Shown here piece after piece: positions 21,012-62,778 of a DNA stretch of 64,000 nt. Position 1 is the stretch's first letter. Each line of letters begins with the position of its first letter. Below the pieces are notes generated by a model. That model was not told the origin of the DNA. It made no database searches and saw nothing but the letters and a program-made list of their open reading frames with translations. Source of the stretch: an uncultured Candidatus Saccharibacteria bacterium (lineage in GTDB: Bacteria; Patescibacteriota; Minisyncoccia; 2-02-FULL-40-12; GWA2-44-9). The position numbers were made by a program, and so were the translations under genes. The stretch is taken from positions 42,687 to 106,686 of the forward strand of contig CAZAUE010000001.1 of the NCBI GenBank assembly GCA_964488565.1. The letters run 5' to 3'.

Positions 21012-21045
21012 AAGAGGAGGCGCCATAGCGCCTCCTTGATGGTTC
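21012..21045 (-). terminator. Intrinsic terminator of GC-rich cassette A
   Basis: Perfect 8-bp stem GGAGGCGC-CAUA-GCGCCUCC, followed on the minus strand by CUCUUUUUUUAC. Confidence 0.6.
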
Positions 21046-21056
21046 GGGGTCGGTTC

Positions 21057-21605
21057 TTAGAAATTGAACCTGACTCCGGCGACCCCGCGACCATCGCCGA
21101 TGGCATAGGTTCCCCAGAGGGCAACCTTACCAACCGACACTTGGACGTAGGGACCGGTTCCGATGAACCGCTGGCTGTTCACGCCGACGGCGACGGTCTT
21201 GGTCATCTGGAACGTTCCCAGATAGCGATACCAATAACCGCTTCCGCCGTGTTCGTGGAGGGAAAGGAGCGACCATCGCCCCGAGCCGAGCCACACGCTA
21301 CCGCCACCACGAAGCGGGTTGTCGGCAGTCTCCAGTCCAAGACTAGCAGACACCTCCACCCACTCGGCGGGAGCGTACGTGAGGCCGGCGTAGCCCTCAC
21401 TCCACTCCTCAGATGTCAGCGTCCAAGCCGACCATCCAAGTTTGCCCTTGAGTGGGCCGTGGACGTAGACGTTGAGCTGAGGCGTAACACCTTCCTCGCT
21501 CACCGTGTTGAACGACTCAACGTACCCAGAGGCCTGCTGAGCCTGAGCAGTCACGACCGTGAGGGTCATGATGATCGTCACGAGAACGAGTTTTGTCAGC
21601 TTCAC
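21057..21605 (-). CDS. GC-rich (~60%+) ORF encoding a signal-peptide-bearing outer-membrane beta-barrel-like protein (GTG start). Foreign or anomalous cassette A.
   Basis: Signal peptide MKLTKLVLVTIIMTLTVVTAQA. Alternating aromatic/Gly beta-strand pattern and a C-terminal ...GVRFNF ending in Phe, as in Gram-negative OMPs. A SD sequence AAGGAGAGAG lies 6 nt upstream, with its own promoter and terminator. Confidence 0.55.
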   Translation of the reverse strand: MKLTKLVLVTIIMTLTVVTAQAQQASGYVESFNTVSEEGVTPQLNVYVHGPLKGKLGWSAWTLTSEEWSEGYAGLTYAPAEWVEVSASLGLETADNPLRGGGSVWLGSGRWSLLSLHEHGGSGYWYRYLGTFQMTKTVAVGVNSQRFIGTGPYVQVSVGKVALWGTYAIGDGRGVAGVRFNF

Positions 21606-21663
21606 TGTCTCTCTCCTTGCCCCTGAATGGGGCGGTTTTCAAACATCTAACCTTAATACCTAT

Positions 21664-21692
21664 ATTATAACAGATTTTAGTGAAAATTGCAA
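21664..21692 (-). promoter_or_regulatory. Sigma70-like promoter for cassette A (TTGCAA-N17-TATAAT)
   Basis: On the minus strand: TTGCAAttttcactaaaatctgtTATAAT, ~55 nt upstream of the GTG start. Confidence 0.45.
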
Positions 21693-21824
21693 GTGGCTAA
21701 ATTACTCAGTTTTTAGAGATTTTAGACAAATATTTTTGTAATTCTTATGTAGCAAAAACTGCTTTTGTGATTATTCATATTCAAACCAAAACTGGAGTAA
21801 TTTTTTTGATATTAAAAAAATTAG

Positions 21825-22595
21825 TTACCACTCCCTTCTCTTTTCTTCTATATCGCTCGGCAAATAACTTTTAGTAGCATCCTTACCCACTTCTCGTCTC
21901 ATGATATAAAGTCTTCGGTTATCATTATCAAAAAACACGTCATCCTGACCACCTTTTCCCATTTCAGTTTTTGGACCGGTCATGACGACTGGCTCAAAGC
22001 CCAAAACATTTTTCACTTCTTTTGATAACAATTCAATCGATTGGATATAATTCTCCTGAAATTTTGTTTTATTTTCAAAATAATTCCCACCAACTATGAC
22101 CGCATCAATCGTCCCACCTTCACACCTTTTCTTTAATTCTTCCAACTGTGTTCTCAGGTCATCGGTAAGCTTGTTTTTAAACTTTCTAAAATTTAAAAAA
22201 TACTCTGGGTCTTGATGAGTTAAAAACGATATGTTTTTACCTGTTTCTTTATCTGTGCCTGTCACTATCAATCCTGTGCAATTTTTAAATGATTTAGAAA
22301 ATTTGCTTAAATCATCAATCGAAGACATGACGTATGAGTAAGCGCCAGCATTTTTAATTTTTTGCTTGTTTAATTCCTCTGGATCTCCATACCAATCAAT
22401 GTTTCTATTAGAGTTTTCTTCCGAAGATGAGTCCAAAAGAACTTCTTCTGGTTCTATTCCATTAAGCTCATCTCTAAACTGTTCAGGTGTTCCTATACAA
22501 GCTATTATTGGTCTCACACCTTCCCTGAGATGCTCAGATTTGAGAGGATTCTTCTGTTCTTCTTTTTTTGGTGTAAATCTTTCAAAAAATTTCAT
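21825..22595 (-). CDS. Hypothetical protein (256 aa)
   Basis: A clean ORF with no motif I can assign. Confidence 0.4.
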   Translation of the reverse strand: MKFFERFTPKKEEQKNPLKSEHLREGVRPIIACIGTPEQFRDELNGIEPEEVLLDSSSEENSNRNIDWYGDPEELNKQKIKNAGAYSYVMSSIDDLSKFSKSFKNCTGLIVTGTDKETGKNISFLTHQDPEYFLNFRKFKNKLTDDLRTQLEELKKRCEGGTIDAVIVGGNYFENKTKFQENYIQSIELLSKEVKNVLGFEPVVMTGPKTEMGKGGQDDVFFDNDNRRLYIMRREVGKDATKSYLPSDIEEKRREW

Positions 22596-22629
22596 GGATA
22601 ATATTTGTTAAAATGGTTTAAATTATTAT

Positions 22630-22659
22630 TTACTAACGAAAGAAAATTGGAACCTCAAA
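22630..22659. repeat. 30-bp direct repeat, copy 1 (partner at 25920..25949). A remnant copy of the 3' end of the Gmad2-like gene.
   Basis: ttactaacgaaagaaaattggaacctcaaa versus ttactaccgaaagaaaattggaacctcaaa (29/30 identical). The minus-strand reading ...EVPIFFR* equals the C-terminus of ORF 25923..26342. Confidence 0.6.
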
Positions 22660-22727
22660 CTGACTTAAAGCCTAACATTTTTACTTCTAAAAACATATCA
22701 TTCAATTTCAAATCCAAGAAAGTTCCT

Positions 22728-25340: not shown

Positions 25341-25888
25341 AAGGATTTAGCAATTAAACCGATTATCAATATTCCTGCAGAATTTAAAACAAATGACAGT
25401 AAAATAAAATATGAATTTTTCACCTTTGATAAGCCGAGCATTGTTACCCCAATTTCATCTGGCAATGGCGAGGCTATTATCAAAGCTCCAACAAGAGGAA
25501 TAATCCACCTAAAAAGATTTAATTTAAAAATTGAGAATAATCTTTCTGATTTTGATATCTTAATCAAGTAGTAAAAATGTTCGAAAACCCTATCTTTTAC
25601 AAAACGAAAAATTATCAAATCTCCAATCAAGGCGCCAAAACCGCCCAATATGGCCATCGTGATAACAGAATTTGATTGGGCTATTTCTCCAAGAGCCACT
25701 GTTGCCGGAGCAGCAGTAAAAACAGAAACAAATAAAATACCGGCAATAAAACTGCCAATGAATCTCATTTCCTGAGTTGATGTAATCAAATCTTGAAGAG
25801 CTCCGGTTTTGGCGAGAATAATGGCTATGAAAACGCTGAATGTGACGAGTGCCAAGTCTCTAACTAAGTTGTTTGCATAGTTATTCAT
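25337..25888 (-). CDS. Hypothetical polytopic membrane protein (183 aa)
   Basis: 5-6 TM helices; overlaps the ATPase start by 4 nt (operon). Confidence 0.4.
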   Translation of the reverse strand: MNNYANNLVRDLALVTFSVFIAIILAKTGALQDLITSTQEMRFIGSFIAGILFVSVFTAAPATVALGEIAQSNSVITMAILGGFGALIGDLIIFRFVKDRVFEHFYYLIKISKSERLFSIFKLNLFRWIIPLVGALIIASPLPDEIGVTMLGLSKVKNSYFILLSFVLNSAGILIIGLIAKSL

Positions 25889-25919
25889 ATTGAAACCAAA
25901 TATAGTTTAATGTTTTTAG

Positions 25920-25949
25920 TTACTACCGAAAGAAAATTGGAACCTCAAA
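25920..25949. repeat. 30-bp direct repeat, copy 2 (3' end of the Gmad2-like gene)
   Basis: See copy 1. The two copies are 3290 bp apart. Confidence 0.6.
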
Positions 25950-26342: not shown

Positions 26343-26426
26343 ATTGTTTGAAACTTACCATAACAATAACACGACTCTAAAAAACGATGAAGCCCACGAA
26401 GACCTCTTGGGTTCATCGTGGGCAGT

Positions 26427-26627
26427 CTATAAACGGAAAGGCTTTTCCTTGAGAAAACCAATTTGTTCTCGAAGCCGTTTAGCTCTTTCTCTCATCGGTC
26501 TCACCTGGTGAGTTGACCAACCACCCGACAGGCTTTCGTCAGCCCATCGTTCCATCTGAATCACATCTTCCTCCAGCAATCTGATCGCTTCGCGCGTCCT
26601 CATCGCTTCCCGTTCTTTTTCTGTCAT
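26427..26627 (-). CDS. Small charged hypothetical protein (66 aa)
   Basis: An ORF in its own slot, helical and charged. Confidence 0.3.
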   Translation of the reverse strand: MTEKEREAMRTREAIRLLEEDVIQMERWADESLSGGWSTHQVRPMRERAKRLREQIGFLKEKPFRL

Positions 26628-26740
26628 TGCAGACTCCTTGTCCTGATAGTATTTCCAATATAATACGCTATTTTATATTTTTGACAAGTGATGGACATTG
26701 GTGTCTGGTACTGGATACGGTGATAAGTGGTTTTTTATAT

Positions 26741-28593: not shown

Positions 28594-28626
28594 ACACTCG
28601 TTTCACTTGTGCTGCGGGACTTGGGA
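28594..28626. repeat. Decayed copy of the tRNA-Gln 3' end plus 18 nt of its 3' flank (copy A)
   Basis: cactcgtttcacttgtgctgcgggacttggga versus the genuine 3' end cactcgtttcactcgtgctgcgggacttggatt at 28793-28825. A third partial copy (gagctgcgggacttggaatc) lies at ~28642-28660. Confidence 0.6.
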
Positions 28627-28808
28627 TCAATTTCGGTTTGAGCTGCGGGACTTGGAATCTCACGTCGTGAGTAAAATGACTCGCAAGGCCTAGCATTTTA
28701 CTCACTCCTTGAAACCCCTCGGTTTCAATACTTCCGCCACGGGAGACCCATAGTTCTCCCGACCCCTCTCCATTCGAATCCAAGCCCCTTGCACTCGTTT
28801 CACTCGTG

Positions 28809-28880
28809 CTGCGGGACTTGGATTCGAACCAAGATACTGGGCTTCAAAGGCCCATGTCCTACCATTAGACGATCCCGCAA
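28809..28880 (-). tRNA. tRNA-Gln (anticodon UUG)
   Basis: Manual fold: acceptor UGCGGGA/UCCCGCA with U1-A72 and discriminator G73 (as in bacterial tRNA-Gln); D-arm GUCU/AAUGGUA/GGAC; anticodon stem UGGGC/GCCCA with loop CUUUGAA; T-arm CUUGG-UUCGAAU-CCAAG. CCA is not encoded. Confidence 0.8.
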
Positions 28881-34502: not shown

Positions 34503-34546
34503 GTATAAAGTATATCATAAATATTAAAAAACCGCCTCCGGAGAGC

Positions 34547-34590
34547 GGGAACCAAGATATCTGGTTCCGCCCTCCGTGGCGATCATGCGC
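34547..34590 (-). terminator. Intrinsic terminator of cassette B
   Basis: Long GC hairpin (core GGAACCA-N8-UGGUUCC with extended outer pairing), followed on the minus strand by UUUUUUAAUAUU. Confidence 0.45.
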
Positions 34591-34609
34591 GACGCGATGT
34601 CCGTCGGCG

Positions 34610-35029
34610 CTACTTTCTCGGCGTGACGGTCGGAACCACACTCTGTTCCGACTTCACGCTGAGGTGGTACTGCCACACCACGTAGGTGTAGCCGGGGTAG
34701 GTCACGTCTTCCACCACGCGGGTGGGGACGGTGGCGACGACCTTCCGAACCGTGCTCGGAGGCAGGCTGTCGACCTCTTCGATCAACGGCATGCCTCGGT
34801 CGTCACGAACCGGGACCACCACGGACGTCCGCGGAAGCGAGCGGTCCGCGAAGTCGAACACGCGAGCGTCGCCTCCGCCCTTGATCGTGGCCTTGTAGGT
34901 GAACGCCAAGGCGTACACCTTGTTGGTCTCGATGCCGTCGCCCCGCCCGAAATTGGCAAAGGCGATAATGGACACGACGGCCACGACAAAGATGGTGGCG
35001 ATGAAAACGAGAACGCGGGTCCGATTCAT
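34610..35029 (-). CDS. GC-rich (~65%) ORF encoding a 139-aa N-terminally membrane-anchored hypothetical protein (cassette B)
   Basis: SD AAGAGG 7 nt upstream; N-terminal TM (VLVFIATIFVVAVVSIIAF). Composition (R/V/T/P-rich) and codon GC are unlike host genes. Confidence 0.5.
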   Translation of the reverse strand: MNRTRVLVFIATIFVVAVVSIIAFANFGRGDGIETNKVYALAFTYKATIKGGGDARVFDFADRSLPRTSVVVPVRDDRGMPLIEEVDSLPPSTVRKVVATVPTRVVEDVTYPGYTYVVWQYHLSVKSEQSVVPTVTPRK

Positions 35030-35094
35030 TTCTGCCTCTTTCTGTTATGCCCCCTAAGGAGCGGTTGGTAAGGGTCTAAATCAACTCTGTAATT

Positions 35095-35131
35095 ACATTA
35101 TAGCACAAAATAACACCGTTTGTCAACCCAA
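35095..35131 (-). promoter_or_regulatory. Sigma70-like promoter for cassette B (TTGACA-N19-AATAAT), with a leader sharing the AGGGGGCATAAC motif with cassette C
   Basis: On the minus strand: TTGACAaacggtgttattttgtgcTAATAAT. The leader ...CCTTAGGGGGCATAACAGAAAGAGGCAGAA precedes the ATG. Confidence 0.4.
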
Positions 35132-36335: not shown

Positions 36336-38078
36336 ATGAAAACAAAACTCATCGCAGTCGCCATAATCACTTCGGCTACAATTTTAGCAATTGCCAGCGT
36401 CTGGAATGATTCTCCTGTTGTTGATGAAATTCCTCACATCGGTGCAGGATATTCTTATGTCGTTGAACGTAGCTACAAATTTAATCCAGAACATCCACCA
36501 TTGGTCAAAGACCTTGCTGGACTGGCCATGTTAACACTAAACCTTGATCGTTCAGCATTTGGTAAAACTTATCAAAAAAATTGGCCCACTGATGTTAATG
36601 GTGAATGGAATTTCGGACGAACTTTAATTTTTAATTCTGGTAATGATGCCTTAACCTTGGTTCGTGTTGCCAAGATGCCAATGCTATTATTCTTTATCAT
36701 CTCCGGCTGGTTAATATTTCTTTGGACAAAAAAGATTTATGGCCCTCGAGCTGGTCTCTTAGCTTTATTTTTGTTTTCATTTACACCAACAATTCTTGCA
36801 CACAGCCGACTAGTCACAACTGACATGGCAGCTCTTTTGGGAATTATTCTTTCAACTTATTTCTTTGTTCGCTATCTTAAAGATCAGACAAACTACAATT
36901 TCTGGTTAGCAGCTATTACTTTTGGAATCGCTGAACTAGCTAAATTCTCAACTTTCTTTCTCGTTCCTTATTTTGTTTTGGTAGGTATTATTTGGGGATA
37001 TGCACACCACCATAGCTTACGATATGTAGTTCTCGGGGCATGGAAAAGCATTCTTGTAATTGTTGTTGGTTTTATTTTTGTTGTCGGGCCTGTTTACCAA
37101 CTACACCTCCTTGGCGATACTCCTGAAAAACAACAATCGGATTCTGAGATTATTCTTGCAACTTATGGCAACCGAATTCTTGCTGACCCAATAATCTGGG
37201 CCTCCGACAAACCTTTCTTGCGACCTTTCGCTCAATATGGCTTAGGGCTACTAATGGTTGTCCAGAGAAATGTTGGTGGCAACCAAACATATTTCCTTGG
37301 AGAACTCTACCAACACGGAGTAAAACCGTATTTCCCAGTAGTGTATTTCATAAAAGAACCACTACCATTTTGGGGATTGTTTCTAATTGCAATTATTGGT
37401 TTTCTCGCATACGCACGACCAAGAGAACGCAAACTGCATGAATGGGTAAAAAATCATTTCACCGAGGTCACACTTCTCTTGTGGCTACTTATTTATTGGG
37501 CTCTTAGCATTACCGCCAACGTTAATATTGGTATCAGACACTTAATTCCTGTTTACGGTTTTACTTATATCCTTTTGGCCGGACTACTGGTTTTTGTATA
37601 TGAAAAAATTAAAACCAAAAAATTATACCTGACTGTTGTGAGTCTGATGTGTGCTTGGTTTCTCATTGAAACTATCATGATATTCCCCTATTACCTGACT
37701 TATTTTAATCAAGCCGTTGGTGGGCCAGCTGGTGGTCACAAATACGTTGTTGATTCAAATCTTGATTGGGGTCAGGACTTAAAACGTCTTGCTGATTGGG
37801 TTGAAACTAATAATGTACAAAAAATCAGCCTCGATTATTTCGGTTGGGCTGATCAATATTACTATTTGGGCAACAAATTTTATTGGGTCAATCAAGGAAA
37901 ATACACAACCAAAGGTCAATTTATTTCTGATAATCCATTTGGTGGGTACTTGGCCGTATCTGGTACTTACTACACAGAATCCCAGGTTAAACCAACACGC
38001 CCCTATGCATGGCTCAAAGATCATAAGCCAATAGCTGTAATCGGAAATTCAATCTTTGTCTGGTACATTCCTCAGTAA
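36336..38078 (+). CDS. GT-C fold glycosyltransferase, ArnT/PMT (dolichyl/undecaprenyl-phosphate-sugar dependent)-like
   Basis: The first periplasmic loop carries the DE motif (VVDEIPHIGAGYSY). Multiple TM helices plus a large C-terminal soluble domain. Confidence 0.65.
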   Translation: MKTKLIAVAIITSATILAIASVWNDSPVVDEIPHIGAGYSYVVERSYKFNPEHPPLVKDLAGLAMLTLNLDRSAFGKTYQKNWPTDVNGEWNFGRTLIFNSGNDALTLVRVAKMPMLLFFIISGWLIFLWTKKIYGPRAGLLALFLFSFTPTILAHSRLVTTDMAALLGIILSTYFFVRYLKDQTNYNFWLAAITFGIAELAKFSTFFLVPYFVLVGIIWGYAHHHSLRYVVLGAWKSILVIVVGFIFVVGPVYQLHLLGDTPEKQQSDSEIILATYGNRILADPIIWASDKPFLRPFAQYGLGLLMVVQRNVGGNQTYFLGELYQHGVKPYFPVVYFIKEPLPFWGLFLIAIIGFLAYARPRERKLHEWVKNHFTEVTLLLWLLIYWALSITANVNIGIRHLIPVYGFTYILLAGLLVFVYEKIKTKKLYLTVVSLMCAWFLIETIMIFPYYLTYFNQAVGGPAGGHKYVVDSNLDWGQDLKRLADWVETNNVQKISLDYFGWADQYYYLGNKFYWVNQGKYTTKGQFISDNPFGGYLAVSGTYYTESQVKPTRPYAWLKDHKPIAVIGNSIFVWYIPQ

Positions 38079-38087
38079 AACAAATTA

Positions 38088-38600
38088 AAGCGCCCCGCCA
38101 GATTTCTCCAGCGGGGCGGTCGTGCCGTCTTCTTCCGTGCCTGTTGCGCGTCTGTGCGGTATCTTTGTCGATGGCTTACAGAGGCCTCGGCTCTGGGCCA
38201 TAGGAGCGCCACTTGCATGTGCCTCCTAAACGCGGGTTGCAGATTGCCTGTGTGGTTGGTTCCGGTGCCAGCTTACAGGACCTTCTTTCCTGTGCTGGGT
38301 GCCGTATCGCGACGACGTACTCTCATGTTCCCCCTTCTGAGGAGGGTGGTGGAAGGGGCGCGCACCGCCCCTTCCAAGTGGTTGTGAATCCCTCGCCGTT
38401 TAGCGGCGGGAGACCGGGTTATCCACCATTCCCCGTGGGTTAACAGAACGTAGGTGCGAAGACTCGTCCGCCACCGTCCCGTTCTGTGCACAGTCCAGCG
38501 TGGCGATAGGTTCACAAGAGGCTTATCGCGAGATTGCTCTCGGACCTCCTTGTCCCTTGTCGCCACGCCGGACCGTCTTGTTGGCTCTCTAACTTAGAGC
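38088..38600. other. ~500-nt GC-rich (~62%) non-coding block with dense hairpin potential. Possible structured RNA or foreign DNA; identity unresolved.
   Basis: Only overlapping composition-driven ORFs on both strands, none protein-like. Perfect hairpins include CGCCCCGC...GCGGGGCG (38091-38118) and GGAAGGGGCG-CGCA-CGCCCCUUCC (38352-38375). A long-range ACAGAACG...CGUUCUGU pairing is possible. Confidence 0.35.
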
Positions 38601-38831
38601 CCGAAAAAAACCAGCAAATTACGACTACCGAACTACCTTAGAGCGACTATGGATGTCCTTACCCCTATTCCTTCAGGCCAATTATTATTACTTGAATGCC
38701 TGGATATTGAGATATTTACGAGGTGTTTGCTGGCTTTTTTCGAGCCCTTTTTAGGAGCCCGATATGTAAAGAACTTAGTGTTTTTAAAGTATAGCAGATA
38801 GCCATAACAATGTCAAGTACTAAGATTTAAT

Positions 38832-38863
38832 AATTAAATAGGGCCATGCGCTTCGCGCGCATG
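38832..38863 (-). terminator. Intrinsic terminator of cassette C
   Basis: Perfect palindrome AGGGCCAUGCGC-UUCG-GCGCAUGGCCCU, 13 nt after the stop codon, with an A/U-rich tail on the minus strand. Confidence 0.55.
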
Positions 38864-38875
38864 GCCCTCACTTCC

Positions 38876-39226
38876 TTACTCGTCTTCGTCGACGACGTCG
38901 TCTTGGACCTGGAAATCGGTCCTTGAATCGACGATGTCTTCGAGGGGGACGAATGGCTCGTTCAAAGCCCACTCGTCGCGGGTCTCGACGACACGTCGCA
39001 CGTGACCCCAATAGCTCTCGCTGACGATTGCCTTGGACTTGAAGGTCTTGCCGATGCGCCGAGTGCGGAGGCGATCATTGCGAACAATCCGCGCCTCCTC
39101 GTCAACGACTTCGGGCGTGAACGTCGCCGTTGCGAAACAACCGGACTGACTGCGGTTCTCAGGAACGAACGTCCCTTCGAATTCGCGCGTCATCTCGGCT
39201 GCCATCCTCTGGGCTCGTGAACTCAT
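38876..39226 (-). CDS. GC-rich (~62%) ORF encoding a 116-aa acidic hypothetical protein (cassette C)
   Basis: SD GGGGGT upstream; the start overlaps a 1-codon minimal ORF (ATGTAATGA). Acidic C-terminus (QVQDDVVDEDE). Confidence 0.45.
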   Translation of the reverse strand: MSSRAQRMAAEMTREFEGTFVPENRSQSGCFATATFTPEVVDEEARIVRNDRLRTRRIGKTFKSKAIVSESYWGHVRRVVETRDEWALNEPFVPLEDIVDSRTDFQVQDDVVDEDE

Positions 39227-39271
39227 TACATACCCCCGTCGTTATGCCCCCTTGGGCTTGATTGAAAACAA

Positions 39272-39300
39272 CTATTCCACAATAATACACCAAAAATGCC
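39272..39300 (-). promoter_or_regulatory. Sigma70-like promoter for cassette C (TTGACA-N17-TATTAT)
   Basis: On the minus strand: TTGACAaaatggcatttttggtgTATTAT. The leader contains AGGGGGCATAAC, as in cassette B. Confidence 0.45.
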
Positions 39301-39332
39301 ATTTTGTCAATCTTGGTGTTTAGGTCTCGCTA

Positions 39333-42969: not shown

Positions 42970-42999
42970 TTGACAAATCGGTATTTTATATGCTATAAT
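42970..42999 (+). promoter_or_regulatory. Consensus sigma70 promoter (TTGACA-N18-TATAAT) upstream of cassette D
   Basis: cTTGACAaatcggtattttatatgcTATAATac; the GC-rich leader begins ~40 nt downstream. Confidence 0.5.
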
Positions 43000-43080
43000 A
43001 CAAGTACGTTCAGTGACAGGTCGTTAACAAGCAAGTCTGTAAACCCCCGCCAGTCAGGCGAGGGGAAGAAGGAGTCAGTC

Positions 43081-43530
43081 ATGAAGATTCAGGCCAGCCT
43101 CGTCTCGATGTCGAAGAACCAGAAGCGCGCCATGGTCACCGTGACCACGGGCGAGGGCGCCCACCGCCGGTCCACCACCCGCCACATCGGCTTCACGGAT
43201 GGTGCATGGTTCGGTCACAACCCCGACGAGCGAGCAGTTCCGCTCAACCGGCGCTACACCGCCGAGCTCCTCGCCGCCAAAGGCGACCTCGCCGGCGAGC
43301 AGGCGACGCTCACCCAGCTCGAGGAAGAACTCCTCAAGCTGGAAACGACCGAGCCGACGACGGAAATGGACACGGCCATGATCGCCGGCTACAAGGCCGA
43401 GCTGGCCGAGGCCATCAGCGAGGCCAAGGCCCTGGTCAACTTCGCCGAGGCATCCGTCGCCGAAGCCGAGCTCAAGCTCCACATCGTCGAGAAGGAAGTG
43501 CCGCTCGAAGTCGAGTTCGGCATCTTCTAG
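43081..43530 (+). CDS. GC-rich (~64%) ORF encoding a 149-aa hypothetical protein with a C-terminal coiled-coil/alanine-rich helix (cassette D)
   Basis: Strong SD GAAGGAG 9 nt upstream of ATG. Protein MKIQASLVSMSKNQKRAMVTVTTGEGAHRR...AELAEAISEAKALVNFAEASVAEAELK. Composition unlike the host. Confidence 0.5.
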   Translation: MKIQASLVSMSKNQKRAMVTVTTGEGAHRRSTTRHIGFTDGAWFGHNPDERAVPLNRRYTAELLAAKGDLAGEQATLTQLEEELLKLETTEPTTEMDTAMIAGYKAELAEAISEAKALVNFAEASVAEAELKLHIVEKEVPLEVEFGIF

Positions 43531-43549
43531 ACATCGTCGACACCTACCA

Positions 43550-43610
43550 AGCCCGCCCTTTCCCACATTCTTGATTGAATCACTGGGAAAGAGCGGGCTC
43601 TTTCATTTTC
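43550..43610 (+). terminator. Intrinsic terminator of cassette D
   Basis: 16-bp stem AGCCCGCCCUUUCCCA...UGGGAAAGAGCGGGCU (one bulge), followed by CUUUCAUUUUC. Confidence 0.55.
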
Positions 43611-43636
43611 AAAAACCCTGTCAGCAGACAAGCAAA

Positions 43637-43660
43637 GGGCCCCACAATGGGGCCCTTTTA
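43637..43660. terminator. Bidirectional intrinsic terminator (serves greA on the minus strand)
   Basis: GGGCCCC-ACAAU-GGGGCCC flanked by AAA and UUUUAAAAUU. Confidence 0.6.
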
Positions 43661-43680
43661 AAATTCAAGAATATTTAGAT

Positions 43681-48371: not shown

Positions 48372-48581
48372 GTTATAACTTGCTGGCCGCTCTCGCCCTT
48401 ACTGTGGCGAGCACGCTCTTGGTTGATTCCTTCGTTAAAAGCTCCGCTTCTCCTTCGTCATAGATATCTATGTCTCAGTCGAATGCTCGCTTTTGCCTCG
48501 GACTCACCCAAGCCAGCTGCGTTCTAAAAATTACCACCAATCTTTATTAATACATTACCATAACAAAATCATTATAAACAA

Positions 48582-48607
48582 TCAAAAAGCCGTCATGATT
48601 GACGGCT
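48582..48607 (-). terminator. Intrinsic terminator after proS
   Basis: AAAAAGCCGUCA-AUCA-UGACGGCUUUUU palindrome. Confidence 0.55.
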
Positions 48608-48623
48608 TTTTGATTTGTCTTAA

Positions 48624-58213: not shown

Positions 58214-58302
58214 GTAGGGTTAATAATAGCAAATTTAGGCCAAATTGGCAATCCACAGGCAAAAATTTTTAAAGCTCCAGAACCCAGCCACCTGAAGACA
58301 CG

Positions 58303-58402
58303 CCTCCGATAAAACCGCTCCTCCGTGAGCGGTTTTATCTCGGCTATAATCGCATTGTCTAATCGCCGACTGATGGACTCCGTCCAATATTTTATCAGTC
58401 GG
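58303..58402. other. Two strong palindromic hairpins in the S8-protease/cassette-F intergenic region
   Basis: GAUAAAACCGCUC-CUCCGU-GAGCGGUUUUAUC (13 bp) at 58303-58334, and GCCGACUGAU-N19-AUCAGUCGGC (10 bp) at 58364-58402. Confidence 0.4.
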
Positions 58403-58461
58403 CTTTGCCAACGTCTCAAATGTCTTCAGATGGCTGGGTTCCTCCATTTAAATGTTTTCAT

Positions 58462-58500
58462 AAAAACAGAAAAACCTCGCACCAGACGAAGCACGAGGCT
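58462..58500. terminator. Bidirectional terminator after the cassette F ORF
   Basis: CCUCG...CGAGG stem with a U-rich flank on both strands (GCACGAGGCUUCUGUUUUG on the plus strand). Confidence 0.35.
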
Positions 58501-58517
58501 TCTGTTTTGATACGAGG

Positions 58518-59168
58518 CTATACCAATAGCCAAGCGATAGTGGCGACCACCCAACTAAGTTCATTGGCCATCTCACTTATTGCAAGCCAAATGCGGTTGC
58601 GGTCCCAACCCGCCTCCCTAACCATGAAGTAAATCTGGCCAAGGCGAATCAGAATCGTAAGGTGCCCCACTACTACCGACAAGCCAGGCGTACCAGAAGC
58701 ACCTTCGGCCAGAAACTTCCAGGCCAGAAGCACTTGAGGTACCGACTTGTAAGCTATAGCGAAAGACGCTTTCGCTATAGGATCGCTCAATGATAAACGG
58801 CGAATAGTGCTTATGAAAATCACCACCGCCGTCAGGACGACTCCTGTTGCAAGTGTTGTTGTGTCCTTATCATTCCATTGATACGCCGGATTCGTTCCGG
58901 CCGCGACCAAAACACAAGAACCAAGAACAAACCAAACAACATAAGTCGCAATGGCTTGTCGAGTGACGCGACTAGGAGCGGTGCGATGAGCACCAATACC
59001 CAATGCCAAGTGAAACACCAGGTATGCAGTAGCCAGACCAAACTGAGCTAAGCTGAATCCTGTCACATCTGTTACCAACCGCAGAACATACGCTCCGCAA
59101 AATATAACCGCACCGATGATCTGGACCCAAAAGAGCAGGTCCGCAACCATCCTTTTCTTTCCTGACAT
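58518..59168 (-). CDS. Moderately GC-rich (~50%) ORF encoding a 216-aa polytopic membrane protein, hypothetical (cassette F)
   Basis: SD AAAGGAGG 5 nt upstream; ~6 TM helices. Its GC is clearly above that of neighbouring genes. Confidence 0.5.
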   Translation of the reverse strand: MSGKKRMVADLLFWVQIIGAVIFCGAYVLRLVTDVTGFSLAQFGLATAYLVFHLALGIGAHRTAPSRVTRQAIATYVVWFVLGSCVLVAAGTNPAYQWNDKDTTTLATGVVLTAVVIFISTIRRLSLSDPIAKASFAIAYKSVPQVLLAWKFLAEGASGTPGLSVVVGHLTILIRLGQIYFMVREAGWDRNRIWLAISEMANELSWVVATIAWLLV

Positions 59169-59234
59169 GCGAACCTCCTTTGCCCTTTACTGAGCCAGAA
59201 AATGTTGGATTTAAGGTACTACTAGAACACAATA

Positions 59235-59263
59235 ATTATACCACACTTTTACAATATTTGCAA
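59235..59263 (-). promoter_or_regulatory. Sigma70-like promoter for cassette F (TTGCAA-N17-TATAAT)
   Basis: On the minus strand: TTGCAAatattgtaaaagtgtggTATAAT. Confidence 0.45.
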
Positions 59264-59298
59264 ATTACCATTTTTCGAGCCAAAACCCTAAGCGATAG

Positions 59299-59498
59299 CC
59301 CGTCTCTGATTTTGGCCACTTCCGCAGTCAAGAAAATACATGAAAGCGAATTAAGGATTTATCCAAAATAACGAGGTCGAACGCCAAGCTGAAAGCTTGG
59401 AGGCAAGAGAGGGTTACCTGTTATTTTGGCTTAAATCCCAAATGAGCTAAGTATATTTTTGAAGACGAGGACTGGTGGCCAAAATTAGAGATGGGCTG
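59299..59498. mobile_element. MITE-like ~200-bp element bounded by 23-bp terminal inverted repeats
   Basis: agcccgtctctgattttggccac (59299-59321) and the reverse complement of gtggccaaaattagagatgggct (59476-59498) match at 21/23 positions. It is non-coding and intergenic. Confidence 0.4.
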
Positions 59499-59507
59499 GA
59501 AGCCCAC

Positions 59508-60185
59508 CTACTCCTTATCCGATAGTAATTTATCTATCCCATCTTTGATTTTATCCCCCAACTCTTTAATCCTTTCAGTCATAAAAAGGGTCTTGATATA
59601 AGCGGAACTAAATATGGTTTTAATTAGATAACCGATAGCAAGAGCCCCACCCAAGAAAACAAGAACCAAAACAAAGTTTTTAAGATAATCAAATAAATAC
59701 TTGTAACTCTCTCCGAAAAAGAATCCTACAAAAAATACCATCCCTATCCAAAGCGCTGATCCCAAAACATTGTACATGGCAAACTTCTTAAGACTATATT
59801 TAAAAGATCCGGCAGTAATCATGGTCGCAATGGTAAGAGACCACGTAACCTTTGCGAATAAAATCGCTCGCCCACTATAGCGCTGGAAATATTCTTCAAC
59901 CTTTTCAATAATTTTTCTACTATTCTTATCCTTACGTCCCCATCTATCTATTGGTTTAGATCCGGCATAATACCCAACGGTATACCAAGCAAATCCACTA
60001 AAAACTTCTCCGGCAAGACAAACAAAAAACGCGGGCCAAAGAGATATGCTTGCAACAGAGGCAAGAAATCCAGCAAGAATAGTTGTATTCATCCCCTCAA
60101 CAGCAGCGCCAACAAATATAAAGAGATATTTGTATTCAACCAAAAACGGGAGATGGTTTTCTATGTATAAAAAGGCGTTTTCCAT
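59508..60185 (-). CDS. DedA/TVP38-family membrane protein
   Basis: The FIFVGAAVEGMNTTILAGFLAS...YYAG pattern is typical of DedA. 225 aa. Confidence 0.6.
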   Translation of the reverse strand: MENAFLYIENHLPFLVEYKYLFIFVGAAVEGMNTTILAGFLASVASISLWPAFFVCLAGEVFSGFAWYTVGYYAGSKPIDRWGRKDKNSRKIIEKVEEYFQRYSGRAILFAKVTWSLTIATMITAGSFKYSLKKFAMYNVLGSALWIGMVFFVGFFFGESYKYLFDYLKNFVLVLVFLGGALAIGYLIKTIFSSAYIKTLFMTERIKELGDKIKDGIDKLLSDKE

Positions 60186-60190
60186 ATTAA

Positions 60191-60832
60191 TTATCTGACC
60201 TTATTTAAAACTTTAAAGTCTTTTTTGAGAACACCCATGGTGGTTCTGTTGTATATAGCCACAGCAGGGTGATAGAGAGGCACAATCCTGATTTTACCAT
60301 AATTAGTCTTGGTATCAAAAGTCTTTCCGTGTATCTGACTAATGGGTTTTAGCTGATTTTCCAATCCGAATTTTCTCATAATATAGTCCATTGAAAAACG
60401 CCCGAGAGTAGCTATCACTTTAGGCTTAATTATTTCTATCTGCTTATCAAGATATGGTCCGTAAATCTTTATCTCCAAAGGAAGTGGATCCCTATTAAGG
60501 GGTGGCCTGTCTTTGACAATGTTTGTTATATAAACATTTTTTCTGTTTATTCCTACTGAAACAAGCAACTCATCAAGAATTTTCCCAGATGCTCCACAAA
60601 ACGGTTTTCCAGTTTTAGCTTCATTTCTACCAGGAGCTTCTCCTATAAACAAAATCTTGGCACGATGACTTCCTTCTCCAATTACGGGAAAAGCTTTGTT
60701 TTTAATTCTTTCTTTATAAAGTGGGGACTTTTTTAAATTCACCACCTCATCCTCAATTTCGTTTAATAATTTAATTCGTTTATCTGAAGTTGGCATATCG
60801 ATTAGTGTAAGTAAAATTAAAAAACAGAGCAA
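60191..60832 (-). CDS. Uracil-DNA glycosylase, family 4
   Basis: GEGSHRAKILFIGEAPGRNEAKTGKPFCGASGKILDELL (GEAPG...PFVG-type motif) and the HPA (YHPAVAIY) motif. Confidence 0.8.
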   Translation of the reverse strand: MLCFLILLTLIDMPTSDKRIKLLNEIEDEVVNLKKSPLYKERIKNKAFPVIGEGSHRAKILFIGEAPGRNEAKTGKPFCGASGKILDELLVSVGINRKNVYITNIVKDRPPLNRDPLPLEIKIYGPYLDKQIEIIKPKVIATLGRFSMDYIMRKFGLENQLKPISQIHGKTFDTKTNYGKIRIVPLYHPAVAIYNRTTMGVLKKDFKVLNKVR

Positions 60833-60917
60833 ACCCAGTAGTGAGTTTTCCGAAAGTTTTTAGCGACCTTGTCGCAATCGAAAAATCTACTACTGGGCAA
60901 ATGCTCTGTTAAAAAAG

Positions 60918-60943
60918 AGGGGGCGACTTCGTGTCGCCCCTTA
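60918..60943 (-). terminator. Intrinsic terminator of cassette E
   Basis: GUCGCCCC...GGGGCGAC stem, followed on the minus strand by CUCUUUUUUAAC. Confidence 0.6.
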
Positions 60944-60953
60944 AGTCTGGTCG

Positions 60954-61106
60954 CTACAGTGTGTGGCCAGATTTCTCGGACTTCCGTCGGCGGTTCGCCC
61001 GCCGAGCGGCCTGCTTCCGAGCCCAGCTCATGCCACCCTGGCTGGACTGGCCGTACTTGTGAAGCTTGTGCAGGTGTCGTTTCACCCGCATTTCACGTTT
61101 GGTCAT
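60954..61106 (-). CDS. GC-rich ORF encoding a 50-aa highly basic protein (cassette E, gene 2)
   Basis: My own translation gives MTKREMRVKRHLHKLHKYGQSSQGGMSWARKQAARRANRRRKSEKSGHTL. SD GGAAGGGGG lies 6 nt upstream. It is below the ORF-track cutoff. Confidence 0.45.
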   Translation of the reverse strand: MTKREMRVKRHLHKLHKYGQSSQGGMSWARKQAARRANRRRKSEKSGHTL

Positions 61107-61124
61107 TTCTATCCCCCTTCCTAG

Positions 61125-61373
61125 CTAGTCGTTGACGGCGTCGACGGCGACAGCGCCCGCCCAAGTCGCTTCTCCAGCGATCTTGCGCAAAACAGCCATC
61201 AAGCCGTACTTCTGCGCATAGGCCTTCGCGGCCACCGAATCGCCACGCTTCAGGATACGACGAAGCTTGCGCTCCGACGTCCTGGCGAAAGCCGGCGCAA
61301 ATTTTCCGTTCCGGCGTCCGGCCGAACCGGGCTTGCCCTTCTTGCCTTCCTGACCCTTCTTCTCGGTCCCCAT
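61125..61373 (-). CDS. GC-rich ORF encoding an 82-aa basic protein (cassette E, gene 1)
   Basis: SD AGGAGGG 6 nt before the ATG (MGTEKKGQEGKKGKPGSAGRRNGKF...). It begins 19 nt after the stop of the upstream host membrane-protein gene. Confidence 0.45.
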   Translation of the reverse strand: MGTEKKGQEGKKGKPGSAGRRNGKFAPAFARTSERKLRRILKRGDSVAAKAYAQKYGLMAVLRKIAGEATWAGAVAVDAVND

Positions 61374-61392
61374 CTGACCCTCCTCATGAATA

Positions 61393-62778
61393 CTAACGTT
61401 GTCCCAAGATTGTATCACTAAATTTTAGTGATGTCAACCCAAAGCTCAACAAAGACAGCGTGAGCCAAAAGATGAATCTTCCCTGCTGAAGTGTCCACAA
61501 GAAGTGGTCAAATAAACCAAAGAATAGAAAAGATAGAACTATGAGCAAAAAAGAATAATGGTATAACTTACTCATTTTTGTTCTCAAGATGAAATCCTTA
61601 ATAAGGAGAAGCAGAAAAATGGCAAACACAGTGATGCCCAATATTCCATTCTCTGAGTAAATCAGGAGATAAATATTGTGTACTGGCTGATAAAGATTAC
61701 GCGATAAATTTTGATCTTTAGTCATTAGCCAATCAACAAAATTACCGGAACCAACTCCAAACCAGTTCAAGGACTTTAATGATTCTTTGTTGTAAAAAAT
61801 TCTCAGTTGAACAGCCTCCTCCCCAGAAGATATCTTTACCCGACTAATCGCTTCGGGCCAATAAAACACCGAGAAACCAGAAGTAACAATGAGTGTTGTT
61901 ATAAATATTAGAGCTAATTTTTTATTCCAATACTCTTTCCCGAACTTTAAGCGCACGAGGATAATTCTTATCAAAAAATTAATAAACAGAATAAATATTG
62001 CTACTCGTGCAAAGGTAAAAAAGAAGGCTAAAAGAGTTAATCCGAACACGAACAGGTAAAATTTGCTTATATTCTTGTAGATCCATAGATAATAAAAAGC
62101 AAAAATTGCCAAAAATAAATACGCGGCCAGAATATTCGGATGGGGCGTGGTGCCATAAGCACGAATAATCTTTTCTCCTGCCATGTTGTAAAAAGATGCG
62201 ATACCAGACATGTTGAGCCCAATAACACTTTCCCCGAGTAACCTGAGACCCAAATCCGATTGTTTAAAAAATTGAAGCACTGCGATTATTGCCTGAAATA
62301 ATCCCCCAGCAATAATAACCATCAGTGAATTGCCAAAACCAAATCTCGTCACAGCATAATTCTTAATATAAAGATAAAATAAAATAAATTCCAAAAGTTT
62401 TATCCAATTATAGAAGGCAAGTTGAGGACTAATAGCGTTTCTGATTGAAACCGCCGAGATAATAATGAATAAGGCCAGAAAAAAATCTGGTTTTTGGATT
62501 AGGTGTTTGGTGTTAGATATTGAGGGTTTAAAAAAATTAGCATAATACTTGATATTGAATATTTGATACGTCTTCGGAGAATTCCCAAGCCAAAACAAAA
62601 ACAAGATCAAAAGCAGTAGGTCTGTTGCGTACAAAGACGCCGACTGCCATTCATTAAAATTCCAGCTCTGATGCCACAAAATTTTCCGTACCTGAAACGG
62701 AATAGCAAATAACAGAAAATAAAATAAAAATTGTTCTGACCTATTTAACAAATAGTGCATAGACAATACCCGCCCCAA
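61393..62778 (-). CDS. Polytopic membrane protein, O-antigen ligase/Wzy-like
   Basis: 461 aa with at least 10 TM helices and a large loop. The family assignment is tentative. Confidence 0.4.
   Translation of the reverse strand: MGRVLSMHYLLNRSEQFLFYFLLFAIPFQVRKILWHQSWNFNEWQSASLYATDLLLLILFLFWLGNSPKTYQIFNIKYYANFFKPSISNTKHLIQKPDFFLALFIIISAVSIRNAISPQLAFYNWIKLLEFILFYLYIKNYAVTRFGFGNSLMVIIAGGLFQAIIAVLQFFKQSDLGLRLLGESVIGLNMSGIASFYNMAGEKIIRAYGTTPHPNILAAYLFLAIFAFYYLWIYKNISKFYLFVFGLTLLAFFFTFARVAIFILFINFLIRIILVRLKFGKEYWNKKLALIFITTLIVTSGFSVFYWPEAISRVKISSGEEAVQLRIFYNKESLKSLNWFGVGSGNFVDWLMTKDQNLSRNLYQPVHNIYLLIYSENGILGITVFAIFLLLLIKDFILRTKMSKLYHYSFLLIVLSFLFFGLFDHFLWTLQQGRFIFWLTLSLLSFGLTSLKFSDTILGQR

Follow-up and report, generated by a model that had tools for sequence, protein, structure and literature searches.

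Phage morons, associated with the names of Juhala and Hendrix, are reportedly units of promoter, gene and terminator that lie between two genes and often deviate in GC content. The 'alien' genes that Lawrence & Ochman ascribed to recent horizontal gene transfer (HGT), followed by amelioration, are gene-sized as well, with sharp-edged deviations in GC content and codon usage, while GC-rich islands can mark structured non-coding RNA (ncRNA) genes in AT-rich genomes (Klein, Misulovin & Eddy 2002; Breaker GC-IGR searches). Some bacterial mRNAs, such as those with the E. coli ompA and B. subtilis aprE leaders, are long-lived owing to 5' stem-loops and strong terminators, and have specialised UTRs.

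Here, we analyzed GC-rich transcription units (cassettes A to F and island G) in a 64-kb stretch of DNA, hereafter the window, from a low-GC, Yanofskybacteria-like CPR bacterium of groundwater. Similarly to phage morons, they are autonomous intergenic units of deviant composition that leave their neighbours undisturbed and vary in presence among relatives, and a promoter and terminator of their own enclose one gene; unlike morons, they have no phage or prophage location but are chromosomal, between LysRS, GreA, FtsQ, PMT and UDG, they match no phage family (PHROGs, IMG/VR, INPHARED), and several of them are syntenic and old. The deviation is as gene-sized and sharp-edged as in the genes of Lawrence & Ochman, yet no donor was found, syntenic orthologues exist, the deviation outlasts the synonymous saturation of the neighbours and all family members with a genomic context sit in low-GC genomes. 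Island G fits the GC-rich ncRNA islands in being ORF-less and strongly folded, with its own promoter and terminator, whereas six of the seven islands are protein-coding and G belongs to no Rfam family. With long-lived mRNAs the units share a 5' GC hairpin (A–D), a strong 3' hairpin and envelope genes, but the whole CDS is written here in GC-rich codons and not only the UTRs are specialised.

GC-rich islands and their architecture

The GC content of the window was 39.1% overall, and 400-bp sliding windows had a median of 38.3% and a 95th percentile of 49.5%, which puts the host at ~38% and not at the 30–35% given in an earlier note on this DNA. Segmentation by GC (segments ≥ 450 bp) returned 20991-21640 (58.9%), 34511-35070 (60.2%), 38051-38640 (57.1%), 38831-39280 (57.1%), 43001-43600 (62.2%), 58521-59060 (50.6%) and 60891-61420 (58.7%). 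All six islands of 50–65% GC that the earlier note had listed (A, B, C, D, F, and E) were thus recovered, together with a seventh, ORF-less one that it had overlooked (G, ~38.05-38.82 kb). The units are spread across 40 kb, each in an intergenic slot amid housekeeping genes, as had been claimed; the flanking genes encode LysRS, SerRS, FtsQ, GreA, PBP2, PMT, UDG and P-type ATPases. Their features, in window coordinates, are as follows:

21015..21692, minus strand: cassette A, whole unit; promoter TTGCAA-17-TATAAT at 21692-21664, SD, terminator 21036-21015
Minus strand: cassette A leader with a CCCC/GGGG hairpin
21057..21605, minus strand: A CDS, 182 aa, GTG start, GC 0.60, GC3 0.71
34532..35126, minus strand: cassette B, whole unit; promoter TTGACA-18-TATAAT at 35126-35097, terminator ending at 34532
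34610..35029, minus strand: B CDS, 139 aa, GC 0.62, GC3 0.85
38091..38816, minus strand: island G, ORF-less; promoter TTGACA-17-TATACT at 38816-38788, terminator 38118-38091
38840..39310, minus strand: cassette C, whole unit; promoter TTGACA-17-TATTAT at 39310-39282, terminator 38868-38840
39226-38876, minus strand: C CDS, 116 aa, acidic C-terminus
42970..43661, plus strand: cassette D, whole unit; promoter TTGACA-18-TATAAT at 42970-42999, leader hairpin
43081-43530, plus strand: D CDS, 149 aa
~43551-43612 and 43636-43661, plus strand: cassette D terminators, two hairpins
58280..58441: hairpin element 3' of F, long and imperfect; inverted repeat I25, 21-nt arms, 95% complementary
58470..59264, minus strand: cassette F, whole unit, GC 0.50; promoter TTGCAA-17-TATAAT at 59264-59235, terminator 58503-58470
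59168-58518, minus strand: F CDS, 216 aa, multi-TM
59297..59497: hairpin element 5' of F, long and imperfect; inverted repeat I18, 23-nt arms, 91% complementary
60920..61437, minus strand: cassette E, bicistronic; promoter TTGACA-17-TACAAT at 61437-61409, terminator 60940-60920
61373-61125, minus strand: E1 CDS, 82 aa
61106-60954, minus strand: E2 CDS, 50 aa, own SD

The uniform architecture described earlier (sigma70-like promoter, SD, one or two small ORFs, terminator) was borne out by an unbiased scan, in which the cassette promoters were the best sigma70-like sites in both 19-kb stretches (12/12 for B and D; 11/12 for C, G, and E; 10/12 with an extended TG for A and F) and the cassette terminators headed the terminator rankings. 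In A–D, a GC hairpin lies 2–20 nt upstream of the exposed SD and a strong hairpin closes the 3' end; the leader hairpins were not exceptional when tested statistically. Leaders and 3' UTRs are orthologous between relatives, and the 3' UTR of B is both GC-rich and conserved. By part, GC amounts to 21–34% in promoters, 41–55% in leaders, 50–65% in CDSs, 50–75% in 3' UTRs and 29–47% in flanks, so that the GC-rich zone spans the unit from leader hairpin to terminator, with a sharp boundary at the transcript that excludes promoters only 30 nt away. The genes use codons as a high-GC organism would (AAG 35:7 over AAA, CTC/CTG, CGC/CGG; TTA, CTA, and ATA absent), and GC3 in the coding frame is 0.71–0.89 for the cassette genes apart from F (0.49), which is the weakest island at 50% GC; D is the most GC-rich unit.

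Coding content and predicted products

Only in the called frame does GC3 exceed GC1 and GC1 exceed GC2, and the sense frame is open in every homologue, while antisense ORFs are interrupted. Third-position changes predominate, with dN/dS of about 0.2–0.6, JC-corrected dS of the cassettes being unreliable at such skewed composition. On sequence criteria, the cassette ORFs are genuine protein genes, C, E1, E2, and F being judged by composition alone. The opposite reading takes the islands for inserts of chimeric or engineered origin, or for non-coding DNA so rich in GC that the scarcity of stop codons leaves chance ORFs. It could appeal to the long ORFs on both island strands and to the truly ORF-less G, but it is at odds with the antisense ORFs being broken and the sense frame kept, with the codon-position pattern and dN/dS < 1, both of which favour coding, with the high-confidence fold of protein A, and with the recurrence of the same cassettes and junctions in MEGAHIT, Banfield-lab, JGI and Logan assemblies, i.e., with independent assemblers, samples, sites and projects. 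We regard it as extremely improbable in general and as refuted for A, B, and D.

Protein A starts with a signal peptide, ends in Phe and was modelled with confidence as a 12-stranded KdgM/NanC-like beta-barrel; it is thus predicted to carry the trait of the 12-stranded KdgM/NanC outer-membrane porins (transmembrane barrel plus signal peptide), from which it differs in having only 9–13% identity to them and no sequence-profile match. Neither Pfam (KdgM included) at E ≤ 1 nor, for the A family profile, PDB below E 0.4 returned a match. The host lineage is not known to possess an outer membrane or BAM, and no BamA or Lpt genes were present within the 64-kb window. Protein B combines an N-terminal TM helix with a conserved beta-rich domain of ~110 aa, the C-terminal part of protein D is helical or coiled, and cassette E encodes two small basic proteins, all of which broadly agrees with the first descriptions of these proteins (OMP beta-barrel, membrane-anchored, acidic, coiled-coil and small basic). 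The cassette proteins evolve fast, with dN above that of their neighbours, and are partly surface-exposed. They matched no toxin-antitoxin, defence, phage or other families in Pfam, PADLOC, NCBIfam and PHROGs; of the two-gene operon with recognisable domains expected for toxin-antitoxin systems, only E has the bicistronic layout, with no domain match.

Homologues and synteny

Family A comprised 38 clusters; flanks were available for 17 loci, and in every one of these the A gene has 49–63% GC inside flanks of 32–45%. B, D, and G are found in unchanged slots across the relatives L024, L025, L027, and L028. In L024, the orthologue of D lies between LysRS and GreA and retains a GC3 of 0.86; same-slot orthologues are more diverged than their neighbours (55% amino acid identity for D vs. 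85–89%). C is missing from the corresponding slot in L024, and its exhaustive search (1.84 billion representatives) gave nine matches at E ≤ 0.001, five of them at E ≤ 1e−10; the matches P0077 and P0078 are probably spurious. F forms part of a 1,235-bp block together with both hairpin elements, which are unrelated to each other and had no match in Rfam; L026 lacks this block between VTT and S8, and no target-site duplication accompanies it. Among the units examined for HGT, only C and F are patchy in relatives. The E slot of L015 holds an unrelated ORF between an orthologous promoter and terminator, A was found in at least four different slots among relatives (as a tandem pair in L021), and B sits after ProRS in L026 with its own −10, leader and 3' UTR. 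Inheritance of the units is therefore not strictly vertical, given that A and B have moved and that C and F occur patchily. A dispersed ~130-nt repeat was noted in relatives, where inverted copies flank A and a copy follows B. The cassettes of the window share no sequence repeats with one another, and neither a recombinase nor a target-site duplication was seen in the window; nor was a transposase seen.

No homologues outside CPR-type low-GC contexts were detected in protein sets of 5.8 billion (word-filtered) and 1.84 billion (exhaustive). All homologues that could be placed are themselves GC-rich and lie in low-GC, CPR-like DNA, and every context seen is chromosomal. Integron gene cassettes, which are promoterless ORFs with attC sites in arrays beside intI/attI, were considered and rejected (own promoters, dispersal over 40 kb, no shared 3' repeats); an integrase was found neither among 10 flanking host genes (Pfam) nor among 10 further genes scanned.

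Persistence of high GC and transcript folding

Between the compared genomes, dS of the host neighbours is 1.3–1.8 or saturated, and over the same distance D kept a GC3 of 0.89/0.86 and B of 0.62–0.85. A neutral two-state decay toward a GC3 of ~0.3, calculated with a branch dS ≥ 0.65, predicts at most ~0.5. As same-slot orthologues are GC-rich while synonymous sites of their neighbours have reached saturation, the high GC appears to be maintained, although ordinary mutation pressure should have erased it over such long evolutionary time. Polarised third-position changes in A run 50 GC>AT vs. 22 AT>GC, and GC3 varies among orthologues (A 0.55–0.82, B over the range above); taken together, slow erosion from a still richer ancestor is possible.

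Compared with synonymous-codon shuffles, the mRNAs of A, B, and F fold in excess (z of −5.5, −5.0 and −4.65; −4.5, −3.6 and −5.3 with block-local shuffles), beyond all of 53 host genes (mean −0.36, sd 1.18, minimum −3.2), and the z of homologues is mostly negative as well. For C, D, and E1 the excess is ordinary (z −1.1 to −2.1), and since this includes D, the unit with the highest GC, richness in GC is not in itself explained by specific structure. A comparison of 11 A genes revealed neither conserved helices nor covariation (covariation term +0.94).

Origin and maintenance of the units

We give a probability of about 0.5 to the reading that the seven islands are independent resident transcription units, vertically inherited, whose high GC has long been maintained, most likely by selection on the transcript. 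The units would then be lineage-specific genes of a Yanofskybacteria/Paceibacteria-type CPR bacterium and not foreign inserts, six of them protein-coding (one bicistronic) and one non-coding, with vertical inheritance in the course of which a complete unit now and then moves, arises or disappears. The high GC and fully inverted codon usage of the units would be held against AT-biased mutation pressure by the benefit of a densely folded, GC-rich RNA that leader hairpin and strong terminator could make long-lived, while near-consensus promoters and strong SDs may let a few envelope, surface and small proteins be made in quantity, such as the predicted outer-membrane-type barrel A, the membrane-anchored beta domain of B and the multi-TM protein F. 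Selection on RNA is favoured by a GC-rich zone that is bound to the transcript, by the like design of the ORF-less G and by the folding of A, B, and F beyond synonymous shuffles, and we infer that selection acts on the stability or expression of the RNA.

Two other histories seem unlikely, to a similar degree. In one, an ancestor of the clade acquired the units from a high-GC (diderm) donor and amelioration has been slow and incomplete, with no selection for GC; this would account for the codon usage, the outer-membrane-type fold of A, which has a signal peptide and ends in Phe, the surplus of GC>AT over AT>GC changes in A and the unequal GC3 of orthologues, but a donor-side homologue is absent from every collection searched, GC3 in D and B (≥ 0.62) lies above the neutral expectation, the GC boundary tracks the transcript, and seven unrelated units, one of them an ncRNA, would each need an identical history. 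In the other, moron-like cassettes from a high-GC reservoir (phage, plasmid or other) circulate among CPR and replace one another at landing sites. The several slots and tandem copies of A, the displaced B, the F block with its hairpins, the gap at C, the exchanged ORF of E and the inverted ~130-nt repeat all speak for such traffic; against it, no recombinase, target-site duplication or shared repeat was seen in the window, nothing specific turned up in IMG/VR, INPHARED phages, PLSDB plasmids, PHROGs and BFVD, same-slot orthologues are more and not less diverged than their neighbours, and the contexts seen are uniformly chromosomal and low-GC. Still less probable is GC-biased gene conversion, by which diversifying surface genes exchanged between strains would act as recombination hot spots and repair bias would raise GC in the absence of RNA selection. 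Fast-evolving, partly exposed proteins suit it, and a GC>AT excess on terminal branches is expected where fixation bias opposes AT-biased mutation; however, the effect that Lassalle et al. 2015 are said to have seen in bacteria is a few per cent in GC3, against a gap of 40–60 points here, the boundary at the transcript is sharp, and gene conversion leaves unexplained the folding of A, B, and F in excess of shuffles of identical composition.

From the earlier note, the self-contained units, their alien composition and their intergenic position stand, and three of its four proposed origins do not. Low-GC relatives carry B, D, and G at matching positions and with similarly high GC, which is what it had itself named as evidence against its readings. 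A recent transfer from a high-GC diderm donor does not agree with this synteny or with the lack of donor homologues: composition and codon usage are atypical, as in recent HGT, whereas absence from close relatives (other than of C and F), a matching donor and neutral-rate decay were not observed (GC3 of D and B is high across host dS ≥ 1.3, with some GC>AT flux in A). An assembly or engineering artefact is contradicted by the recurring junctions. Of the mobile or addictive family, whole-unit relocation and presence/absence were seen, a weaker kind of mobility, and a common family (no repeats) and addictive modules were not. As a class, the phenomenon appears to be undescribed.

Island G

Island G is a candidate structured ncRNA of ~650–700 nt. 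No ORF is conserved among its homologues, which share the slot in L024, L025, and L027, and a search against Rfam gave no family at E ≤ 10 except a terminator-like ctRNA fragment. The fold is more stable than that of shuffles (z = −7.2), and sequence and helices are kept in four genomes, a number at which covariation support is thin; G thereby combines the absence of a conserved ORF, conserved helices and folding beyond shuffles in these four sequences. Although ORF-less, it has the same design as the coding units.

Composition and anatomy of the islands

The window has a GC content of 39.1%, and in 400-bp windows the median is 38.3% and the 95th percentile 49.5%. Seven outlier segments of 450–650 bp each rise out of this profile. 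They include all six GC-rich islands that the earlier note had picked out from the sequence (A, B, C, D, F, and E), but its count was one short, as a seventh island without an ORF (G) had been overlooked, and its host GC content of 30–35% was too low, the measured value being nearer to 38%. F is a far weaker outlier than the other islands. The only known RNA gene in the window is a tRNA-Gln (28808-28879).

GC-rich islands of the window: unit (strand), content, outlier segment, and GC content of the segment
A: 21015-21692 (-), signal peptide and predicted beta-barrel; 20991-21640, 58.9%
B: 34532-35126 (-), membrane-anchored protein; 34511-35070, 60.2%
G: 38091-38816 (-), no ORF, TTGACA-17-TATACT promoter, 12-bp terminator; 38051-38640, 57.1%
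C: 38840-39310 (-), protein-coding cassette; 38831-39280, 57.1%
D: 42970-43661 (+), protein-coding cassette; 43001-43600, 62.2%
F: 58470-59264 (-), multi-TM protein; 58521-59060, 50.6%
E: 60920-61437 (-), bicistronic (E1 and E2, 82 + 50 aa); 60891-61420, 58.7%

Two 19-kb stretches were scanned without bias for sigma70-like promoters and terminators. The cassette promoters were top-ranked in both (TTGACA-18-TATAAT with a score of 12/12 in B and D; 11/12 in C, G, and E; 10/12 with an extended TG in A and F), and the terminator lists were headed by those of the cassettes, the 3′ end of D consisting of two hairpins that were missed by the loop and tail rules of the scanner. A short GC hairpin lies 2–20 nt upstream of an exposed GGAG-type Shine-Dalgarno site in A–D, with unremarkable z-scores when these leader hairpins were evaluated as exceptional structures. 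The GC content amounts to 21–34% in promoters, 41–55% in leaders, 50–65% in coding sequences, 50–75% in 3′ UTRs, and 29–47% in the DNA outside; the GC-rich zone is thus the transcript from leader hairpin to terminator, promoter excluded, and not the coding sequence alone. Although cassettes B and C are unrelated, both have the 11-mer GGGGGCAUAAC directly after the leader hairpin (35050-35060 and 39240-39250), replaced by GGGGCAAGGAG in related leaders of homologues. These motifs may reflect a common leader design.

Coding status and protein families

In the called frames GC3 > GC1 > GC2, with GC3 values of 0.71–0.89 (0.49 in F), compared to 0.26–0.43 in 17 host genes. Codon usage is inverted relative to the host (AAG:AAA 35:7 vs. 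92:258): CTC/CTG replace TTA/TTG/CTT, CGC/CGG replace AGA, and TTA, CTA, and ATA are wholly absent. Antisense dual coding was considered and rejected, since antisense ORFs are not conserved and every homologue is open in the sense frame only; the long antisense ORFs are by-products.

Family A comprises 38 clusters in which the length, the AQAQQ end of the signal peptide, and the terminal Phe are all conserved and changes fall mostly at third positions (dN/dS 0.22–0.25); families B and D have 14 clusters (dN/dS ~0.3) and 3 clusters (dN/dS ~0.6), respectively. An exhaustive search of 1.84 billion representatives with C gave nine matches at E ≤ 0.001, five of them at E ≤ 1e−10. Of the matches, P0077 and P0078 are probably spurious; distant hits of C, to a nematode protein and to one of 2,753 aa, resemble low-complexity noise. 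The reading of C as a remnant of murB was rejected. C, E1, E2, and F are considered putatively coding on composition and signals only. None of the seven cassette proteins had a significant match in Pfam, PHROGs, PADLOC, or NCBIfam, and sequence searches of the PDB were also without a match, for the A profile as well as for C, D, E1, and F. The predicted structure of A has the fold of KdgM/NanC but lies outside these families by sequence. The CPR lineage is believed to lack an outer membrane, and because of this the 12-stranded outer-membrane-type barrel A may act in the envelope of the episymbiont's host cell.

When the GTDB genomes were scanned with a trimmed A alignment, one locus was found. 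In two independent assemblies (L011 9889-10441 and L018 10001-10553) the A homologue is split over two frames (residues 1–40 and 37–182), which suggests a real frameshift/pseudogene in that lineage or an alternative start. Another locus, L021, carries tandem diverged A paralogues (10016-10552 and 10801-11304; 51% and 43% identity to A of the window), both GC-rich, with more GC-rich small ORFs nearby (11619-12071 and 19124-19456).

Origin and conservation of the islands

An assembly or engineering artefact, one of the origins proposed in the earlier note, was rejected. Independently assembled contigs from several Rifle groundwater samples (a 113-kb ENA MEGAHIT contig, the 264-kb ANAN16-1 scaffold_15, and one from a different BioProject) encode a LysRS identical to that of the window, and a JGI contig also has cassette A with its flanks. 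Across these assemblies A, B, C, D, G, and their junctions are 99–100% identical, which rules out a chimera or an engineered construct. The neighbours are ordinary bacterial housekeeping genes (LysRS, SerRS, FtsQ-like, GreA, PBP2, MreBC, ProRS, RRF, P-type ATPases, PMT-type glycosyltransferases, UDG), and the named homologues of cassette proteins belong to Candidatus Paceibacterota, Liptonbacteria, and Yanofskybacteria. Independent assemblies, housekeeping neighbours, and CPR homologues together indicate that the islands are natural in a CPR (Patescibacteria) chromosome.

Recent horizontal transfer would account for the deviating composition, but failed the tests of distribution, donor, and amelioration. 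In 17 of 17 loci, A homologues with 30–99% amino acid identity have 49–63% GC between flanks of 32–45%. Relatives of the window genome were found via D and B. In L024 (LysRS 85% identical at the amino acid level) B adjoins the PMT pair, D lies between LysRS and GreA, and a G-like island without ORF lies between PMT580 and the FtsQ-like gene; the corresponding slots of L025 (LysRS 70%) are taken by D, G, and B, two of which (B and G) recur in L027 (Candidatus Yanofskybacteria), and L028 repeats the order of the window, with B followed by a 134-aa protein and a TrwB-like one. The leaders, the conserved double-hairpin 3′ UTR of B, and the terminators of D can be aligned across genomes, and this, together with the shared slots, makes them orthologous units rather than independent insertions. 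The synteny of B, D, and G in relatives is the very observation that, according to the earlier note, would refute a foreign origin. We therefore regard the islands as resident, conserved units, with a probability of about 0.9. No account of persistently GC-rich genes in CPR genomes was found in the literature, an absence that is not proof of novelty.

Island G as a candidate non-coding RNA

Homologues of G were located in three other genomes:
L024, 3150-3930 (-)
L025, 6231-6964 (+)
L027, ~3600-4420 (+)

Its slot is constant in the four genomes, convergent with a PMT glycosyltransferase gene. G has no conserved ORF, and its MFE z-score is -7.2. Common to all four sequences are a near-invariant AU-rich 5′ domain, which a 22-bp helix closes off, the helix UGGUGGAUAACCC/GGGAUUnnCAACCA around a variable hairpin, and further hairpins in which the sequence differs and pairing is kept, although covariation is thin with four sequences. 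No Rfam family was matched. G looks like an undescribed structured RNA of ~650–700 nt, and it fits the classic pattern of GC-rich ncRNA islands in AT-rich genomes. In L025 a further GC-rich island without ORF lies between SerRS and the FtsQ-like gene (3561-4060); its promoter is TTGACA-17-TATACT, in minus orientation, and the island had no match in Rfam at E ≤ 1.

Probable maintenance of the high GC content

Neighbouring genes of the window have dS values of 1.3–1.8 to those of L024 and are saturated in comparison with L025; despite that divergence, GC3 in D is 0.89 and 0.86. In B it is 0.85, 0.64, 0.62, 0.65, and 0.77 in five genomes, and in A it is steady at 0.70–0.74 in lineages with host-gene dS from 0.5 to saturation, with the caveat that JC-corrected dS is underestimated for genes of such skewed composition. 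In a two-state decay model with a host equilibrium GC3 of ~0.3 (our own calculation from the measured GC3 and dS), a branch dS of at least 0.65 strips ~70–80% of the GC3 excess, and neutral amelioration predicts a present GC3 of ~0.5 or less, even from a start at 1.0. Polarised third-position changes in A (50 GC>AT vs. 22 AT>GC) are the trace expected of AT-biased mutation opposed by fixation bias, and would fit slow net erosion or a parsimony bias as well. It is likely that the GC-rich state is maintained and not a relict.

RNA folding and proposed cause

Folding was compared with that of synonymous-codon shuffles, in which protein, codon usage, and GC3 stay unchanged; the resulting z-scores were -5.5 (A), -5.0 (B), and -4.65 (F), and -4.5, -3.6, and -5.3, respectively, when codons were permuted within 40-codon blocks, compared to a mean of -0.36 (sd 1.18, minimum -3.2) for 53 host genes in the same test. 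Most z-scores of A, B, and D homologues are negative too (-0.9 to -5.8), and those of the window's own C, D, and E1 are unexceptional (-1.1 to -2.1). RNAalifold detected no covarying helices common to 11 A genes, so that A mRNA displays general foldedness and not one specific structure; the extra structure of the three transcripts A, B, and F is non-conserved. Folding energies are -0.40 to -0.47 kcal/mol per nt in cassettes vs. -0.17 to -0.26 in host genes, the cassette transcripts being predicted to be very stable because they are GC-rich.

The transcript-shaped GC boundary and the non-coding unit G of like design point to the RNA level. We propose resident lineage-specific units with strong predicted expression, the GC-rich state of which would be actively kept, probably at the RNA level, with RNA longevity or output as the trait that may be selected. 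That selection at this level causes the high GC content is put forward tentatively, at somewhat less than even odds. More doubtful is the broader proposal that Yanofskybacteria-type CPR possess dedicated “GC-armoured” units, i.e., whole transcripts long held GC-rich by RNA selection. Besides small genes specific to the lineage, this set would include at least one ncRNA (~650 nt), with transcripts of 55–65% GC and GC3 up to 0.9 inside genomes of 38–44% GC.

Base-composition outliers are routinely read as recent horizontal transfer or as contamination of metagenome-assembled genomes; here, related CPR genomes share them in syntenic positions and with a persistently high GC content, and automated filters would wrongly discard genuine CPR genes. 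Some force holds single bacterial genes 20–25 GC points off their genome in the long term (50–60 at third positions, an offset whose persistence is unusual), the most plausible candidate being selection that acts on the stability or expression of the mRNA. If the proposal of GC-armoured units is true, they would represent a gene-specific compositional equilibrium of a kind not known from bacteria, and compositional outliers in reduced genomes could not be read as HGT. From an uncultivated episymbiont, the set also provides candidates for abundant envelope/surface proteins (a porin-like barrel among them) and for a new large structured RNA.

Relocation, gain, and loss of units

The idea of mobile minigenes survives in a weak form only: whole units are relocated, gained, and lost, but no connection to a recombinase, phage, or plasmid was found. 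A adjoins DoxX in the window and in L014. Its place in L015 and L017 is between Wzy and a permease, whose genes overlap in the window; L009–L011 and L018 have it between TspO and FtsK, and in L007 its neighbour is Obg. In L026, B follows ProRS with its own -10 element, leader, and 3′ UTR, and C is absent from L024. The UDG–Wzy slot of L015 has an orthologous promoter and terminator but an unrelated 45-aa ORF, which was rejected as a homologue of the ORFs that occupy this slot (E) in the window. Together with two long hairpin elements, unrelated to each other, F makes up a block of 1,235 bp that is missing between VTT and S8 of L026; no target duplication was seen there, and neither hairpin element had a match in Rfam or a second copy in the window. 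Relatives carry a MITE/REP-like repeat of ~130 nt that contains an AT-rich hairpin and is dispersed over intergenic regions; it lies on both sides of A in L015 and L020, in inverted orientation, and comes after B in L025.

Hairpin and repeat elements near the units
58280-58441 (~160 nt) and 59297-59497 (~200 nt): long, imperfect hairpins bracketing F
L015 1143-1279, 2683-2823, 3691-3850: ~130-nt repeat
L020 913-1043, 1651-1773: ~130-nt repeat
L025 496-555, 10472-10597: ~130-nt repeat
L009, L011, L018: several copies of the ~130-nt repeat

The window has no copy of this repeat, and its cassettes have no repeats or mobile backbone in common. No relatives came up when IMG/VR was scanned with A, B, and D or when phages and plasmids were queried with A by tblastn, and BFVD fold matches to A were generic phage OMP barrels only (TM 0.48 or less). 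The loci compared indicate that whole transcription units are reshuffled, gained, and lost over genus/family divergence. Their architecture resembles that of phage morons, but they are not located in a phage, and they are neither integron cassettes nor TA modules.

The intergenic slot between MreB and ProRS, occupied by B in L026, contains a perfect 16-bp palindromic hairpin (48580-48615) that is flanked by T-runs on either side and is likely a bidirectional terminator. The 3′ end of the tRNA-Gln gene (28808-28879, -) with 16 nt downstream is repeated ~200 bp away at 97% identity, with a weaker third copy, in a mildly GC-rich stretch (52%; repeats at 28595-28624, 28626-28655, and 28792-28821), which looks like an att-type scar of integration or excision. 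At 60826-60915, the loop of the UDG terminator hairpin ACAGAGCA...TGCTCTGT contains a nested hairpin of ~60 nt that the orthologous site in L015 lacks.
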